Assembly (NCBI RefSeq): GCF_044324785.1
Contig: NZ_CP172127.1
DNA length: 64,000 nucleotides
Reading direction: 5' to 3' (one strand)
From: Escherichia coli
Lineage (GTDB): Bacteria > Pseudomonadota > Gammaproteobacteria > Enterobacterales > Enterobacteriaceae
In this document: positions 44,740-52,720 of the stretch, piece after piece
Layout of the letters: each line of letters begins with the position of its first letter
Position numbering within the stretch: position 1 is the first letter of the stretch
Program-made: the position numbers and the translations under genes
Notes under the pieces: model-generated
Seen by the model: only the letters and a program-made list of their open reading frames with translations
Database searches by the model: none
Told to the model about the DNA's origin: nothing

Positions 44740-45889
44740 CGTTCCGGTAGCTCAGGTGTTGCAGGCGCTGGCTGAACAGGAGAAGTTGAACCTGGTGGTG
44801 TCGCCAGACGTCAGCGGTACGGTGTCGTTACATCTAACAGATGTTCCCTGGAAGCAAGCACTACAAACTGTAGTGAAAAGCGCCGGACTGATAACGCGTC
44901 AGGAGGGCAACATTCTCTCGGTGCATTCCGTTGCCTGGCAGAATGACAATATCGCCCGTCAGGAGGCGGAGCAGGCGCGGGCGCAGGCAAATCTGCCGCT
45001 GGAAAATCGCAGTATAACCCTGCAATACGCCGACGCGGGAGAACTGGCGAAAGCCGGGGAGAAGCTACTGAGTGCCAAAGGGAGTATGACCGTCGATAAA
45101 CGCACCAATCGCCTTTTGCTGCGAGATAACAAAACGGCGTTAAGCGCGCTTGAACAGTGGGTAGCGCAAATGGATCTGCCGGTCGGGCAGGTTGAGCTGT
45201 TGGCGCATATTGTCACCATTAATGAAAAAAGTTTGCGTGAGTTAGGCGTGAAATGGACGTTGGCTGATGCGCAACAAGCTGGTGGCGTTGGGCAAGTCAC
45301 CACGCTTGGCAGCGACCTCTCCGTAGCGACGGCGACAACGCATGTCGGTTTTAACATTGGACGCATCAACGGACGTTTACTGGATCTTGAGCTTTCCGCG
45401 CTCGAACAAAAACAGCAGCTGGATATTATCGCCAGTCCGCGTCTGCTGGCCTCTCATCTTCAGCCTGCCAGCATTAAACAGGGGAGCGAAATTCCATATC
45501 AGGTTTCCAGCGGGGAAAGTGGCGCGACGTCGGTGGAATTTAAAGAGGCCGTCCTGGGGATGGAGGTCACGCCCACGGTGTTACAAAAAGGTCGCATCCG
45601 GCTGAAATTACACATCAGCCAGAACGTTCCGGGGCAGGTGCTACAGCAGGCCGATGGCGAAGTGCTGGCGATTGATAAGCAGGAGATCGAAACGCAGGTC
45701 GAGGTCAAAAGCGGAGAAACGTTGGCGCTGGGTGGCATTTTTACCCGTAAAAATAAATCGGGGCAGGATAGCGTACCGTTGCTTGGCGACATTCCCTGGT
45801 TCGGGCAATTATTTCGTCATGACGGAAAAGAAGATGAACGACGCGAGTTAGTGGTGTTTATCACGCCACGACTGGTTTCCAGTGAGTAA
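44651..45889 (+). CDS. hofQ: secretin HofQ (PilQ/ComE-type outer membrane DNA-uptake channel)
   Basis: 412-aa ORF with signal peptide and secretin C-domain; overlaps hofP by 89 nt. Confidence 0.92.
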   Translation: MKQWIAALLLMLIPGVQAAKPQKVTLMVDDVPVAQVLQALAEQEKLNLVVSPDVSGTVSLHLTDVPWKQALQTVVKSAGLITRQEGNILSVHSVAWQNDNIARQEAEQARAQANLPLENRSITLQYADAGELAKAGEKLLSAKGSMTVDKRTNRLLLRDNKTALSALEQWVAQMDLPVGQVELLAHIVTINEKSLRELGVKWTLADAQQAGGVGQVTTLGSDLSVATATTHVGFNIGRINGRLLDLELSALEQKQQLDIIASPRLLASHLQPASIKQGSEIPYQVSSGESGATSVEFKEAVLGMEVTPTVLQKGRIRLKLHISQNVPGQVLQQADGEVLAIDKQEIETQVEVKSGETLALGGIFTRKNKSGQDSVPLLGDIPWFGQLFRHDGKEDERRELVVFITPRLVSSE

Positions 45890-46289
45890 ACAGCCGTAAA
45901 AGCGGTAATGTTTTTACGCTGAACGTGTTTCATCTATTTGACGCGCGCAGGTATTTAGCATACAAGGAGTACCGATTTGAGAGTTGGTGCTCTTCGCTGC
46001 CTGCGTTCCATGATGATGATTTATCATTCAGGCGGCATTTTGCTGTCTTTTTTACGCTAATCTTACCCGGTGATTTATCGCCAGAGCGGTGGTAGCAAGG
46101 CAGCGCGCTTGCAGCGACCAGATATGCAGGGGGATGGGTGATTTATTCAGTTGCCAAACCCGCTGGAGTATTGAGATAATTTTCAGTCTGACTCTCGCAA
46201 TATCTTATGAGGTTTCAGTTCATGTCCTGCGGCGCTCTCTGAGCGAAGCGGGTTTATCATTAACGAATAGTCTTAGTAGTACCGAAAAA

Positions 46290-46811
46290 ATGGCAGAGAA
46301 ACGCAATATCTTTCTGGTTGGGCCTATGGGTGCCGGAAAAAGCACTATTGGGCGCCAGTTAGCTCAACAACTCAATATGGAATTTTACGATTCCGATCAA
46401 GAGATTGAGAAACGAACCGGAGCTGATGTGGGCTGGGTTTTCGATTTAGAAGGCGAAGAAGGCTTCCGCGATCGCGAAGAAAAGGTCATCAATGAGTTGA
46501 CCGAGAAACAGGGTATTGTGCTGGCTACTGGCGGCGGCTCTGTGAAATCCCGCGAAACGCGTAACCGTCTTTCCGCACGTGGCGTTGTCGTTTATCTTGA
46601 AACGACCATCGAAAAGCAACTTGCACGCACGCAGCGTGATAAAAAACGCCCGTTGCTGCACGTTGAAACACCGCCGCGTGAAGTTCTGGAAGCGTTGGCC
46701 AATGAACGCAATCCGCTGTATGAAGAGATTGCCGACGTGACCATTCGTACTGATGATCAAAGCGCTAAAGTGGTCGCAAACCAGATTATTCACATGCTGG
46801 AAAGCAACTAA
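46290..46811 (+). CDS. aroK: shikimate kinase I
   Basis: Start set at [25 protein letters not shown] (P-loop), 173 aa; the ORF track extends 67 codons upstream through the promoter region. Confidence 0.95.
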
Positions 46812-46867
46812 TTCTGGCTTTATATACACTCGTCTGCGGGTACAGTAATTAAGGTGGATGTCGCGTT

Positions 46868-47956
46868 ATGGAGAGGATTGTCGTTACTCTCGGGGAACGT
46901 AGTTACCCAATTACCATCGCATCTGGTTTGTTTAATGAACCAGCTTCATTCTTACCGCTGAAATCGGGCGAGCAGGTCATGTTGGTCACCAACGAAACCC
47001 TGGCTCCTCTGTATCTCGATAAGGTCCGCGGCGTACTTGAACAGGCGGGTGTTAACGTCGATAGCGTTATCCTCCCTGACGGCGAGCAGTATAAAAGCCT
47101 GGCTGTACTCGATACCGTCTTTACGGCGTTGTTACAAAAGCCGCATGGTCGCGATACTACGCTGGTGGCGCTTGGCGGCGGCGTAGTGGGCGATCTGACC
47201 GGCTTTGCGGCGGCGAGTTATCAGCGCGGTGTACGTTTCATTCAAGTCCCGACGACGTTGCTGTCGCAGGTCGATTCCTCCGTTGGCGGCAAAACTGCGG
47301 TCAACCATCCCCTCGGTAAAAACATGATTGGCGCGTTCTACCAGCCTGCTTCAGTGGTGGTGGATCTCGACTGTCTGAAAACGCTTCCCCCGCGTGAGTT
47401 AGCGTCGGGGCTGGCAGAAGTCATCAAATACGGCATTATTCTTGACGGTGCGTTTTTCAACTGGCTGGAAGAGAATCTGGATGCGTTGTTGCGTCTGGAC
47501 GGTCCGGCAATGGCGTACTGTATTCGCCGTTGTTGTGAACTGAAGGCAGAAGTTGTCGCCGCCGACGAGCGCGAAACCGGGTTACGTGCTTTACTGAATC
47601 TGGGACACACCTTTGGTCATGCCATTGAAGCTGAAATGGGGTATGGCAATTGGTTACACGGTGAATCGGTCGCTGCGGGTATGGTGATGGCGGCGCGGAC
47701 GTCGGAACGTCTCGGGCAGTTTAGTTCTGCCGAAACGCAGCGTATTATAACCCTGCTCACGCGGGCTGGGTTACCGGTCAATGGGCCGCGCGAAATGTCT
47801 GCGCAGGCGTATTTACCGCATATGCTGCGTGACAAGAAAGTCCTTGCGGGAGAGATGCGCTTAATTCTTCCGTTGGCAATTGGTAAGAGTGAAGTTCGCA
47901 GCGGCGTTTCGCACGAGCTTGTTCTTAACGCCATTGCCGATTGTCAATCAGCGTAA
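46868..47956 (+). CDS. aroB: 3-dehydroquinate synthase
   Basis: 362-aa [25 protein letters not shown]...; matches my memory of AroB. Confidence 0.96.
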
Positions 47957-48047
47957 CAACAAGAAAGGTCAGGCCGCTTATCAAGCGGTCTATTAGCTTC
48001 AGGTTAATTGCAACGTGGTAAGCATTAACCTTTTAGTGGGGTGTTAA

Positions 48048-49334
48048 ATGGATGAATTCAAACCAGAAGACGAGCTGAAACCCGATCCCAGCGATCGTCG
48101 TACTGGTCGTTCTCGTCAATCTTCTGAACGTTCTGAGCGTACTGAACGTGGCGAACCGCAGATCAATTTTGATGATATTGAACTTGATGACACTGACGAT
48201 CGCCGTCCGACTCGTGCGCAAAAAGAGCGCAATGAGGAACCGGAAATCGAAGAAGAAATTGACGAATCCGAAGATGAAACCGTGGATGAAGAGCGCGTAG
48301 AGCGTCGTCCGCGTAAGCGCAAAAAAGCAGCCAGTAAACCCGCTTCTCGTCAGTATATGATGATGGGCGTCGGCATTCTGGTTCTCCTGCTGTTGATCAT
48401 CGGTATCGGTTCTGCGCTAAAAGCCCCCTCGACCTCTTCCAGCGATCAAACCGCGTCTGGCGAGAAGAGTATTGATCTTGCTGGCAATGCGACCGATCAG
48501 GCGAATGGCGTGCAGCCAGCGCCGGGAACCACGTCTGCGGAAAATACTCAGCAGGATGTTTCTCTGCCGCCGATCTCTTCTACGCCGACTCAAGGGCAAA
48601 CCCCGGCGTCAACGGATGGTCAACAACGTGTTGAAGTGCAGGGTGACCTGAACAATGCGCTGACCCAGCCACAAAATCAGCAACAGCTGAACAATGTGGC
48701 GGTCAATTCTACATTGCCGACTGAACCCGCGACGGTCGCGCCTGTTCGCAATGGCAATGCATCGCGTGACACGGCGAAAACGCAAACCGCTGAACGTCCG
48801 GCCACTACGCGTCCAGCTCGCCAGCAGGCGGTGATTGAACCGAAAAAACCGCAAGCAACCGTGAAAACGGAGCCGAAGCCGGTAGCACAGACGCCGAAGC
48901 GTACTGAACCAGCTGCTCCTGTGGCAAGCACAAAGGCACCGGCTGCGACTTCTACGCCAGCACCAAAAGAGACGGCGACTACGGCTCCAGTACAGACGGC
49001 ATCCCCGGCGCAAACCACGGCAACACCAGCCGCTGGAGGGAAGACCGCAGGTAATGTTGGTTCGTTGAAATCGGCACCGTCCAGCCATTACACTCTGCAG
49101 CTGAGCAGTTCCTCTAACTACGACAACCTGAACGGTTGGGCGAAGAAAGAGAATCTGAAAAACTACGTTGTCTATGAAACGACGCGTAATGGTCAGCCGT
49201 GGTATGTCCTGGTTTCTGGCGTGTACGCTTCGAAAGAAGAGGCGAAAAAAGCGGTATCTACATTGCCAGCAGATGTCCAGGCCAAAAACCCGTGGGCGAA
49301 ACCGCTGCGTCAGGTACAGGCCGATCTGAAGTAA
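48048..49334 (+). CDS. damX: cell division protein DamX (SPOR domain)
   Basis: 428-aa ORF with an acidic N-terminus, TM segment, long low-complexity Q/P/A/T-rich linker and C-terminal SPOR domain. Confidence 0.93.
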
Positions 49335-49344
49335 TCAAGGTTAT

Positions 49345-49372
49345 CTCCCGCAATGGTTTATCGTTGCGGGAG
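49345..49372 (+). terminator. hairpin CTCCCGCAA-N10-TTGCGGGAG between damX and dam (possible attenuator/partial terminator)
   Basis: 9-bp perfect inverted repeat read directly, 11 nt after the damX stop; no strong U-tract. Confidence 0.35.
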
Positions 49373-49440
49373 TTGCCTGAAGCGCTGGATGCTGTCGGAG
49401 CTTTCTCCACAGCCGGAGAAGGTGTAATTAGTTAGTCAGC

Positions 49441-50277
49441 ATGAAGAAAAATCGCGCTTTTTTGAAGTGGGCAGGGGGCAAGTATCCCCTGCTTGATGAT
49501 ATTAAACGGCATTTGCCTAAGGGCGAATGTCTGGTTGAGCCTTTTGTAGGTGCCGGGTCGGTGTTTCTCAACACCGACTTTTCTCGTTATATCCTTGCCG
49601 ATATCAATAGCGACCTGATCAGTCTCTATAACATTGTGAAGATGCGTACTGATGAGTACGTACAGGCCGCACGCGAGCTGTTTGTTCCCGAAACAAATTG
49701 CGCCGAGGTTTACTATCAGTTCCGCGAAGAGTTCAACAAAAGCCAGGATCCGTTCCGTCGGGCGGTACTGTTTTTATATTTGAACCGCTACGGTTACAAC
49801 GGTCTGTGTCGTTACAATCTGCGCGGTGAGTTTAACGTGCCGTTTGGCCGCTACAAAAAACCCTATTTCCCGGAAGCAGAGTTGTATCACTTCGCTGAAA
49901 AAGCGCAGAATGCCTTTTTCTACTGTGAGTCTTACGCCGATAGCATGGCGCGCGCAGATGATGCATCCGTCGTCTATTGCGATCCGCCTTATGCGCCGCT
50001 GTCTGCGACCGCCAACTTTACGGCGTATCACACAAACAGTTTTACGCTTGAACAACAAGCGCATCTGGCGGAGATCGCCGAAGGTCTGGTTGATCGCCAT
50101 ATTCCAGTGCTGATCTCCAATCACGATACGATGTTAACGCGTGAGTGGTATCAGCGCGCAAAATTGCATGTCGTCAAAGTTCGACGCAGTATAAGCAGCA
50201 ACGGCGGCACACGTAAAAAGGTGGACGAACTGCTGGCTTTGTACAAACCAGGAGTCGTTTCACCCGCGAAAAAATAA
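49441..50277 (+). CDS. dam: DNA adenine methyltransferase (GATC)
   Basis: 278-aa ORF with catalytic DPPY motif (CDPPYAP). Confidence 0.96.
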
Positions 50278-50294
50278 TTCTCAAGGAGAAGCGG

Positions 50295-50972
50295 ATGAAA
50301 CAGTATTTGATTGCCCCCTCAATTCTGTCGGCTGATTTTGCCCGCCTGGGTGAAGATACCGCAAAAGCCCTGGCAGCTGGCGCTGATGTCGTGCATTTTG
50401 ACGTCATGGATAACCACTATGTTCCCAATCTGACTATTGGGCCAATGGTGCTGAAATCCTTGCGTAACTACGGCATTACCGCCCCTATCGACGTACACCT
50501 GATGGTGAAACCCGTCGATCGCATTGTGCCTGATTTCGCTGCCGCTGGTGCCAGCATCATTACCTTTCATCCAGAAGCCTCCGAGCATGTTGATCGCACG
50601 CTGCAACTGATTAAAGAAAATGGCTGTAAAGCGGGTCTGGTATTTAATCCGGCGACACCGCTGAGCTATCTGGATTACGTGATGGATAAGTTGGATGTGA
50701 TCCTGCTGATGTCCGTCAACCCTGGTTTCGGCGGTCAGTCTTTCATTCCGCAAACACTGGATAAACTGCGCGAAGTACGTCGTCGTATCGACGAGTCTGG
50801 CTTTGACATTCGACTGGAAGTTGACGGTGGCGTGAAGGTGAACAACATTGGCGAAATCGCTGCGGCGGGCGCGGATATGTTCGTTGCCGGTTCGGCAATC
50901 TTCGACCAGCCAGACTACAAAAAAGTCATTGATGAAATGCGCAGTGAACTGGCAAAGGTAAGTCATGAATAA
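50295..50972 (+). CDS. rpe: ribulose-phosphate 3-epimerase
   Basis: 225-aa [24 protein letters not shown]...; matches my memory of Rpe. Confidence 0.96.
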
Positions 50973-51723
50973 GTTTGAAGATATTCGCGGCGTCGCTTTT
51001 GATCTCGATGGTACGCTGGTAGACAGTGCTCCTGGCTTGGCTACCGCAGTAGATATGGCGCTGTATGCGCTGGAGTTGCCCGTCGCAGGTGAAGAACGCG
51101 TTATAACCTGGATTGGTAACGGCGCAGATGTTCTGATGGAGCGCGCATTGACCTGGGCGCGTCAGGAACGTGCGACTCTGCGTAAAACAATGGGTAAACC
51201 GCCCGTTGATGACGACATTCCGGCAGAAGAACAAGTACGTATTCTGCGTAAACTGTTCGATCGCTACTATGGCGAGGTTGCCGAAGAGGGGACGTTTTTG
51301 TTCCCGCACGTTGCCGATACGCTGGGCGCATTGCAGGCTAAAGGCCTGCCGTTGGGCCTGGTCACCAACAAACCGACGCCGTTCGTCGCGCCGCTGCTGG
51401 AAGCCTTAGATATCGCTAAATACTTCAGCGTGGTGATTGGTGGTGATGATGTGCAAAACAAAAAACCGCATCCGGACCCGCTGTTACTGGTGGCTGAGCG
51501 GATGGGAATTGCTCCACAACAGATGCTGTTTGTTGGCGACTCACGCAATGATATTCAGGCAGCAAAAGCGGCAGGTTGCCCATCAGTTGGCTTAACCTAC
51601 GGATATAACTACGGCGAGGCTATCGATCTCAGCCAGCCTGATGTAATTTATCAGTCTATAAATGACCTTCTGCCCGCATTAGGGCTTCCGCATAGCGAAA
51701 ATCAGGAATCGAAAAATGACTAA
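50965..51723 (+). CDS. gph: phosphoglycolate phosphatase
   Basis: 252-aa HAD-family ORF (FDLDGTL motif); overlaps rpe by 8 nt. Confidence 0.95.
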
Positions 51724-52720
51724 GCCCATCGTTTTTAGTGGCGCACAGCCCTCAGGTGAATTGACCATTGGTAACTACATGGGTGCGCTGCGTCAGTGGG
51801 TAAACATGCAGGATGACTACCATTGCATTTACTGTATCGTTGACCAACACGCGATCACCGTGCGCCAGGATGCACAGAAGCTGCGTAAAGCGACGCTGGA
51901 TACGCTGGCCTTGTATCTGGCTTGTGGTATCGATCCTGAGAAAAGCACCATTTTTGTTCAGTCCCACGTGCCGGAACATGCGCAGTTAGGCTGGGCACTG
52001 AACTGCTATACCTACTTCGGCGAACTGAGCCGCATGACGCAGTTTAAAGATAAATCTGCGCGTTATGCCGAGAACATCAATGCTGGTCTGTTTGACTATC
52101 CGGTGCTGATGGCAGCGGACATCCTGCTGTATCAAACTAATCTGGTACCGGTGGGTGAAGACCAGAAACAGCACCTGGAACTGAGCCGCGATATCGCCCA
52201 GCGTTTCAACGCGCTGTATGGCGAGATCTTTAAAGTGCCGGAGCCGTTTATTCCGAAATCTGGCGCGCGCGTAATGTCGCTGCTGGAGCCGACCAAAAAG
52301 ATGTCCAAGTCTGACGATAACCGCAATAACGTTATCGGCCTGCTGGAAGATCCGAAATCGGTAGTGAAGAAAATCAAACGTGCGGTCACTGACTCCGACG
52401 AGCCGCCGGTAGTTCGCTACGATGTGCAGAACAAAGCGGGCGTTTCCAACCTGCTGGATATCCTTTCTGCGGTAACGGGCCAGAGCATCCCGGAACTGGA
52501 AAAACAGTTCGAAGGCAAGATGTATGGTCATCTGAAAGGTGAAGTGGCTGATGCCGTTTCCGGTATGCTGACTGAATTGCAGGAACGCTATCACCGTTTC
52601 CGCAACGATGAAGCCTTCCTGCAACAGGTGATGAAAGATGGCGCGGAAAAAGCCAGCGCGCACGCTTCCCGTACGCTAAAAGCGGTGTACGAAGCGATTG
52701 GTTTTGTGGCGAAGCCGTAA
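51716..52720 (+). CDS. trpS: tryptophan--tRNA ligase
   Basis: 334-aa class I aaRS with HIGH-like (TIGNYMGA) and KMSKS motifs; overlaps gph by 8 nt. Confidence 0.96.

Follow-up and report, generated by a model that had tools for sequence, protein, structure and literature searches.

The periplasmic linker of Escherichia coli DamX and the two long open reading frames antisense to it

Introduction

DamX of Escherichia coli K-12 (b3388) is a bitopic SPOR-domain protein of the divisome, which localizes to the septum and binds denuded glycans. It consists of a cytoplasmic domain, a transmembrane helix, a long periplasmic linker and a SPOR domain. FtsN and DedD are other SPOR proteins of E. coli with periplasmic linkers, and that of DamX, described as extended and mostly unstructured, is the largest among the inner-membrane SPOR proteins. 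We know of no FtsN-like essential (E) domain that has been described for DamX.

Long open reading frames (ORFs) on the strand opposite a bacterial gene have been interpreted in two ways. Those in frame -1 have been explained by codon bias in the annotated gene, which generally does not account for those in the other antisense frames (Mir et al., 2012; PMC3454372). On the other hand, E. coli O157:H7 (EHEC; PMC9927249) and Pseudomonas aeruginosa (olg1 and olg2; PMC8850804) are reported to have antisense overlapping genes that are translated. These claims are based on ribosome profiling together with purifying selection on the antisense frame.

Here, damX was analysed in a stretch of 64,000 nucleotides from an E. 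coli genome (the window). A prediction made earlier from the sequence (the original prediction) held that the linker of this gene creates two spurious antisense ORFs of 159 and 113 aa. As in the EHEC and P. aeruginosa cases, the ORFs are long and lie within an annotated gene on its opposite strand. The 159-aa ORF resembles the frame -1 'shadow' ORFs of Mir et al. (2012) in being codon-aligned and in having a length that is explained by the codon usage of the sense gene. The 113-aa ORF differs from these in that it lies in another antisense frame and is explained by the local amino-acid composition. What the region encodes is almost certainly the periplasmic tether of DamX, which connects the membrane helix with the SPOR domain, and both minus-strand ORFs are almost certainly non-functional by-products.

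Results and discussion

Identity of the gene and architecture of its product

According to the ORF list of the 64-kb window, positions 48048-49334 of the plus strand hold an ORF of 428 aa plus stop codon, which is the damX coding sequence. The matching gene, 95-99.4% identical, carried the annotation 'cell division protein DamX' in all but one of 5,426 complete E. coli genomes (5,425), and a look-up in a protein collection returned 263 contigs that carry the exact protein, recorded as E. coli DamX. The gene order, read from the ORFs of the window and the RefSeq annotation of the matching K-12 locus, is aroK-aroB-damX-dam-rpe-gph-trpS; the position of damX between aroB and dam is common to Salmonella, Citrobacter and E. 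albertii. Annotation, gene order and the SPOR domain described below bear out the assignment to damX that had been made from the sequence. The locus (aroK-aroB-damX-dam), the length of 428 aa and the domain architecture are shared with K-12 DamX. Twenty nucleotide differences across damX separate the window from a BW25113 derivative (K-12), and the differences from K-12 DamX are allelic only (e.g. Ser188, encoded by TCA here, is Ala in most strains).

Pfam assigned aa 345-418 to the SPOR family PF05036 with a score of 54 bits (cut-off 21; E = 1.9e-14), and the solved SPOR structure PDB 2LFV ('Protein damX') matched aa 334-428 (E = 1.3e-55). A hydrophobic segment was present at aa 103-124 and an AlphaFold2 (AF2) model predicted a helix at aa 100-122 with a pLDDT of 65-77. 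In the same model aa 122-356 were without secondary structure (pLDDT <50); as the alignment underlying it was shallow (25 sequences) and its mean pLDDT was 41, the disorder is that of a model. The predicted layout is thus that of a bitopic protein, with one N-proximal transmembrane helix followed by a long linker, the topology itself being taken from the literature. The linker had originally been placed at 48300-49060. Because 48300-48419 codes for the last part of the cytoplasmic domain and for the membrane helix, this holds only for the remainder, and the linker proper is 48420-49067 (Table 1).

Table 1. Features of damX and of the ORFs opposite to it. Positions refer to the window.
Feature	Position	Strand	Remarks
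N-terminal cytoplasmic domain, aa 1-100	48048-48347	+	E 21%, R 16%, D 13%; topology from literature
Transmembrane helix, aa 101-124	48348-48419	+	AF2 helix 100-122; 24 aa, invariant in orthologues
Proximal linker, aa 125-240	48420-48767	+	No predicted structure; strong purifying selection; three conserved motifs
Conserved motif 1, aa 170-182	48555-48593	+	13 residues; retained in orthologues
Conserved motif 2, aa 192-207	48621-48668	+	16 residues; retained in orthologues
Conserved motif 3, aa 221-230	48708-48737	+	10 residues; retained in orthologues
Distal linker, aa 241-340	48768-49067	+	A/T/P(/K/Q)-rich low-complexity spacer; varies in sequence and length between species
Indel-prone core of distal linker	48908-49031	+	Three sequenced in-frame deletions; 12-bp TPAA indel after 48953
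SPOR domain, aa 341-428	49068-49331	+	Pfam PF05036; PDB 2LFV; 88 aa in all orthologues
159-aa antisense ORF, ATG start	48609-49088	-	Codon-aligned frame; artefact
113-aa antisense ORF, GTG start	48677-49018	-	Third codon positions coincide with damX; artefact

Composition of the linker

Over aa 125-340 the linker contains 16% A, 16% T, 12% P and 10% Q. These four residues together make up 54% of it. Their share is 46% over aa 125-240 and 64% over aa 241-340, and reaches 72% over aa 270-330; outside the linker it is 21%. The entropy in sliding windows was at its minimum at aa 291-330 (2.64 bits), compared with about 3.6 bits in the SPOR domain. Two dipeptides were enriched: PA occurred 10 times against an expectation of 4.2 (p = 0.002) and QQ 5 times against 2.1 (p = 0.04). 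Significant over-representation of TA and AP in the linker was not found. The description of a low-complexity Q/P/A/T-rich linker with runs of PA, TA, QQ and AP is therefore borne out for the bias, PA and QQ, but not significantly for TA and AP.

A tandem DNA repeat was not detected in 48300-49100 (TRF, score 30) and a repeat search of the linker yielded only two-copy matches of 12-15 nt. A CRISPR-like or tandem-repeat structure was rejected on these grounds, in agreement with the original prediction. Head-to-tail DNA repeat units, such as a variable-number tandem repeat (VNTR) or contingency locus would possess, were likewise not present. As the linker has no repeat at the DNA level, it should be called 'compositionally biased' rather than 'repetitive'.

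Frame of the antisense ORFs and the reasons for their length

Both antisense ORFs were found in the ORF list exactly where they had been reported, inside the damX coding sequence. They had been described as rich in R, C and W. This applies to the 159-aa ORF (R 24%, C 8% and 7 W, counted by eye), but not to the 113-aa ORF, 53% of which is A, V or G.

The 159-aa ORF is codon-aligned with damX, position 49088 being the third base of a sense codon. In this frame stop codons arise solely opposite the sense codons TTA, CTA and TCA, and damX has two of these, CTA124 (48417-48419) and TCA188. The ATG of the ORF is the reverse complement of the CAT codon of His347 and its stop that of the TCA codon of Ser188. 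The open run in the aligned frame extends from 48612 across the rest of the linker and the whole SPOR domain and continues past the damX stop, for at least 241 codons. It is only because the first in-frame ATG happens to lie opposite His347 that the ORF looks linker-sized. The frame is open over this distance because TTA, CTA and TCA are infrequent in E. coli and even more so in the linker, which is poor in Leu and Ser. When the synonymous codons were permuted while the DamX protein sequence was kept, the longest run in the aligned frame had a mean of 269 codons compared with the 241 observed (p = 0.60). From the codon usage of the window 2.6 aligned-frame stops were expected in the linker (216 codons) and 1 was seen. 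For the whole of damX these numbers were 6.5 and 2 (Poisson P = 0.04, uncorrected), the fourth lowest value among 47 genes.

The 113-aa frame follows other rules. A stop arises only where TAN follows a codon ending in T or C, or where CAN follows one ending in T. The open run at 48680-49087 (136 codons) covers a part of damX that is free of Tyr and His codons and has few for Gln, and His347-Tyr348 marks its end. Tyr and His are absent from the distal linker, and one synonymous change between CGC and CGT ahead of a Gln codon is enough to open or close the frame. In the synonymous-codon shuffles the mean longest run in this frame was 96 codons, compared with the 136 observed (p = 0.06, upper tail). 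For the 113-aa ORF the amino-acid composition is the better explanation.

Long antisense runs were also common elsewhere in the window. In 47 gene proxies the longest antisense run per gene had a median of 129 codons and was at least 190 codons in 17 of them; the adjoining rpe, which has no linker, is spanned over its whole length by an antisense ORF of 215 aa. Given the protein and its codon usage, the antisense open runs in damX are no longer than chance allows. The statement that the linker creates the ORFs consequently needs to be narrowed: the shortage of Leu, Ser, Tyr and His in the linker contributes, but the effect is generic (17 of the 47 genes) and the run that contains the 159-aa ORF is not confined to the linker.

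The shortage of TTA, CTA and TCA in damX is a weak deviation in the direction that an antisense gene would give; three ordinary genes of the window have a lower value.

Conservation of the antisense frames and selection on them

The window was compared with 10 E. coli genomes spread over the identity ranking. The stop codon of the 159-aa ORF was missing in all 10 of them. The TCA codon of Ser188 is a variant of the lineage of the window, the other strains examined having Ala at this position, and the K-12 counterpart of the ORF comprises 223 aa. The 113-aa ORF was prematurely stopped in 7 of the 10 genomes, at codon 66 (codon 70 in GF4-3, which has a 12-bp insertion). As read by eye from the sequences, the CGC/CGT switch that toggles this ORF is a synonymous change in Arg258 before a Gln codon. 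In E. albertii, Salmonella and Citrobacter the ends of the open runs differed as well, and the 113-aa frame was broken several times. In Salmonella stops were present in the aligned frame at seven sense-codon positions (including 176, 337 and 353). A conserved start and stop, which an overlapping gene should have, was thus not observed within E. coli (10 of 10 and 7 of 10 genomes) or in the three other species.

At 48612-49088 the ratio of synonymous to non-synonymous polymorphisms (S:N) was 37:10 in damX and 8:39 in the 159-aa frame. In the 113-aa frame it was 29:10. Purifying selection on the latter frame was considered on account of this ratio and rejected: the ratio results from the third codon positions, which coincide with those of damX. 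Of the polymorphisms that are synonymous in damX, 28 of 30 were also synonymous in the 113-aa frame where 27.3 are expected without constraint, and 3 of 37 were so in the 159-aa frame where 4.1 are expected. Compared with Salmonella over codons 189-347, DamX was 73% identical, the DNA 69% and the aligned antisense translation 37%. Purifying selection beyond that on the sense gene was therefore not found in the S:N ratio of 8:39, in the test conditional on damX or in the comparison of 37% with 69%. The unstable ends, this ratio and the conditional test all agree with the reading of the antisense ORFs as artefacts. Selection on the antisense frames, which had been named beforehand as evidence that would contradict that reading, was looked for and was absent. 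In this respect the damX ORFs differ from the EHEC genes and olg1/olg2, for which such selection is claimed (PMC9927249; PMC8850804).

Family, promoter and expression evidence

A Pfam family was not assigned to either antisense ORF at E values up to 1, and the exact translations of both were absent among about 15 billion predicted proteins. Rfam gave no match on either strand of 47900-49500 at E values up to 1, and a structured RNA or antisense sRNA was rejected on that basis. In the RefSeq records of the ten E. coli genomes compared, no feature was annotated opposite damX. A consensus scan of the minus strand revealed no promoter-like site upstream of either antisense start; the only sites in the promoter and terminator scan were one at 49065-49094 on the plus strand and one at 48199-48172 on the minus strand, far from the antisense starts. 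A convincing Shine-Dalgarno sequence was not recognized by eye upstream of these starts (AGGAACTGCTCAGCTGCAGAGTGTAATG and CTTCCCTCCAGCGGCTGGTGTTGCCGTG). A promoter and ribosome-binding site belonging to the ORFs themselves were thus not detected by the consensus scans.

A PIRT-Seq study followed up a nested gene 'within damX' (PMC12350097). It was rejected as an antisense candidate, since the primers used for its tagging show it to be encoded by the sense strand, in the +1 frame. Its open region at 48079-48300, with the TAG at 48298-48300, lies in the part of damX that encodes the cytoplasmic domain, outside the linker. The candidate was seen in one replicate only and the outcome of the western blot is not stated (PMC12350097). 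The conservative table of 215 new coding sequences in that study has no entry between 3,507,705 and 3,512,471, an interval that contains damX (PMC12350097). PIRT-Seq, an indirect line of evidence, gave no sign that the antisense frames are translated. Pervasive transcription or translation of the minus strand at a low level may occur. In a genomic SELEX paper on sigma factors damX is named only as the neighbour of a peak in aroB.

It could be argued that damX harbours genuine overlapping (shadow) genes in the form of one or both antisense ORFs, like those claimed in EHEC and P. aeruginosa. In E. coli K-12, E. albertii and Citrobacter the aligned frame has open runs of 219-305 codons, damX is depleted in the codons that generate stops in it (2 versus 6.5 expected; P = 0.04, uncorrected), and for E. 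coli O157:H7 and P. aeruginosa translation of antisense overlapping genes has been reported (PMC9927249; PMC8850804). However, codon usage accounts for the lengths of the runs, the ends of the ORFs are unstable even within E. coli and Salmonella has stops at seven positions of the aligned frame. Moreover, the antisense protein diverges faster than the DNA, the S:N ratio of 8:39 and the conditional test reveal no constraint, and a Pfam family, an exact match in the protein collection, a promoter-like site, a convincing Shine-Dalgarno sequence and a PIRT-Seq candidate are all lacking. This makes an overlapping gene extremely improbable. That the aligned frame (159 aa here and 223 aa in K-12) is translated at a low level as a young, lineage-restricted protein on which selection is undetectable as yet seems to us hardly more credible. 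Codon usage and amino-acid composition fully explain the two shadow ORFs.

The finding is an ordinary one and already known: a known protein with a known disordered linker, and two shadow ORFs. Its value is chiefly that of a negative control, as the numbers illustrate that a bacterial gene may contain a pair of antisense ORFs longer than 100 aa without any special cause being needed. Other antisense ORFs can be checked quickly in the same way, by identifying the frame, shuffling the synonymous codons, inspecting the stability of the ends across strains and determining the antisense S:N ratio conditional on the sense gene. The sole point of biological interest is a side result, namely that the DamX linker is composed of two parts and is not uniform.

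Conserved proximal and variable distal parts of the linker

Within E. coli piN/piS was 0.03 for the proximal linker (aa 125-240) and 0.11 for the distal half. The pN/pS values against Salmonella and Citrobacter were 0.10-0.15 and 0.20-0.28 respectively. The polymorphic sites of the linker were distributed over codon positions 1, 2 and 3 as 7, 5 and 44, in keeping with selection on the sense frame. Three motifs in the proximal part (Table 1) were kept in orthologues of 44-61% identity, and the mean column conservation was 0.74-0.84 in the 12-residue blocks that hold them compared with 0.26-0.37 over aa 245-328. In full-length orthologues of this range of identity the transmembrane segment always had 24 aa and the SPOR domain 88 aa, the proximal linker measured 116-147 aa and the distal linker 41-113 aa. 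A query with the linker alone against 1.84 billion cluster representatives gave just 44 matches. Judged by these comparisons, the DamX linker does not appear to be uniform: the proximal half bears motifs and only the distal half behaves as a variable spacer.

To our knowledge, no function has been assigned to the motifs at aa 170-230. Their conservation suggests that they are short linear motifs with a role in binding, and they may be docking sites for partners from the divisome or for peptidoglycan synthases.

Length variation of the linker

When 60 complete E. coli genomes were sampled evenly down the ranking, the span was identical in 59 and 12 bp longer in the remaining one. The +12-bp (TPAA) allele, in which the insertion encodes TPAA beside a near-identical TPAP, is the commonest length variant and was present in at least 40 of the 5,426 genomes, a lower bound as the count was made with a junction-specific query. 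Because E. albertii and E. marmotae share the 432-aa state, the common 428-aa allele is probably the product of a 12-bp deletion. The rarer DamX variants of E. coli and Shigella range from 389 to 433 aa; their indels map to the distal linker and a few to the acidic cytoplasmic region. Three variants that were retrieved as DNA had lost 87, 117 and 69 nt respectively, cleanly and in frame, and always inside 48908-49031. At the edges of these deletions 2-6 nt matched exactly (microhomology) as part of longer, imperfect direct repeats, ACCAGCYGCT being an example. The larger deletions were singletons or present on a few contigs and some of them could be assembly artefacts. The variation in linker length that had been anticipated between strains is thus rare within E. 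coli, where frequent length polymorphism of the kind seen in VNTR or contingency loci was not found (59 of 60 genomes of the same length; +12 bp in 40 of 5,426). It is marked between species and there affects the distal half only (41-113 aa).

Two other views of the linker have to be weighed against this. The term 'low-complexity linker' implies that the whole linker is a featureless entropic spacer of which only the length matters. Its biased composition, the absence of predicted structure from the model and the description in the literature as mostly unstructured are consistent with this, and the distal half does act in such a way. The proximal half does not conform to it, given a piN/piS of 0.03 and three motifs that are retained at an overall identity of 44-61%; the mean conservation of the blocks that contain these is 0.74-0.84, that of most of the distal half 0.26-0.37. 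We therefore consider a uniform spacer unlikely, though to be taken seriously. Alternatively, the linker could be a hypervariable or contingency region in which frequent changes in length by repeat slippage tune the reach of DamX or evade recognition by phage or host. In-frame variants of 389-433 aa that cluster at 48908-49031 between short direct repeats, the range of 41-113 aa in the distal linker of orthologues, the cross-linking of T4 gp27 to DamX (PMC11054660) and a high synonymous diversity (piS 0.098) would fit such a region. However, the span was the same in 59 of the 60 genomes that were sampled evenly, even the most frequent length variant was found in 40 of 5,426 genomes only, and the larger deletions, singletons or confined to a few contigs, are possibly assembly errors. 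In addition, a tandem DNA repeat is absent and the piN/piS of 0.03-0.11 points to purifying instead of diversifying selection. This alternative is consequently very unlikely.

In the preferred reading, that of a tether with a motif-bearing proximal and a variable distal part, the linker spans the distance from the single membrane helix to the SPOR domain, which binds peptidoglycan. As the literature on DamX suggests, such a tether would give the membrane-anchored protein access to peptidoglycan at the septum, the denuded glycans of which would be bound by the SPOR domain; from the same literature, DamX may also act on PBP1B. The distal half drifts in sequence and length between species, and within E. 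coli it occasionally gains or loses segments in frame between short direct repeats.

The high synonymous diversity (piS 0.098) is not unique to the linker, similar values being found for rpe and gph.

Conservation and diversity along damX

The proximal linker of DamX contains three short motifs that were kept in orthologues sharing only 44-61% identity (Table), and piN/piS of the segment that holds them was 0.03. The so-called linker is therefore in part a region that bears motifs, and more than spacer alone.

Synonymous diversity was compared gene by gene over 45400-52100 of the window in eight E. coli. The value for the damX linker was 0.098, that of the cytoplasmic part 0.024 and that of the SPOR domain 0.011, with sharp shifts at about 48420 and about 49068. 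The values for aroK, aroB and dam were 0.017, 0.023 and 0.026, and diversity was likewise high in rpe (0.075) and gph (0.078). The abrupt change inside damX could possibly reflect a recombination mosaic. Constraint on synonymous sites at the ends of the gene is likewise a possible explanation.

The sole tandem DNA repeat of damX lies in the part that encodes the cytoplasmic domain, where it specifies the sequence SERSERTER. An E. coli DamX variant of 425 amino acids lacks exactly one SER unit.

Features in the damX region and elsewhere in the window
Feature	Position	Strand	Description
Open reading frame containing aroK	46089-46811	+	mechanical ORF list; extended upstream to GTG at 46089; 240 aa
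ORF upstream of aroK	46207-46242	+	11 codons; identical to PIRT-Seq candidate CDS142
PIRT-Seq 'in-damX' nested candidate	48079-48300	+	+1 frame relative to damX (PMC12350097)
Tandem DNA repeat, damX cytoplasmic domain	48122-48149		TTCTGAACG; 9 bp x 3.1 copies
Proximal-linker motifs of DamX	48555-48593, 48621-48668, 48708-48737	+	orthologue conservation
Promoter-like match	49065-49094	+	TTGAAA, 18 nt, TACACT; 9/12; consensus match only
damX-dam spacer	49335-49440		folding; two strong predicted hairpins, ~49345-49372 and ~49400-49423
Antisense ORF	50319-50966	-	215 aa; over essentially the whole of rpe

Open reading frames outside the annotation

Antisense open runs of at least 190 codons were present in 17 of the 47 genes of the window, and such matches in the ORF track are therefore expected across its whole length; the antisense ORF of rpe is listed in the Table. 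The mechanical ORF list contains aroK in an extended form, the annotated gene being 46290-46811 (174 codons including the stop).

The damX-dam spacer

Folding of the spacer between damX and dam gave a minimum free energy of -47.6 kcal/mol (z = -4.5 vs shuffles). Neither of the two predicted hairpins has a T-run behind it. The hairpins may have a role in the processing or stability of the mRNA, or may act as attenuating structures between the two genes. The promoter-like match falls within damX, towards its 3' end, and precedes dam by about 350 nt.

PIRT-Seq candidates

The nested 'in-damX' candidate is a same-strand, out-of-frame ORF of at most 73 codons that ends at the TAG at 48298-48300. 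It was detected in one replicate only, and its authors offered +1 frameshifting as an alternative (PMC12350097). CDS142 is an intergenic entry of the same candidate table (PMC12350097).
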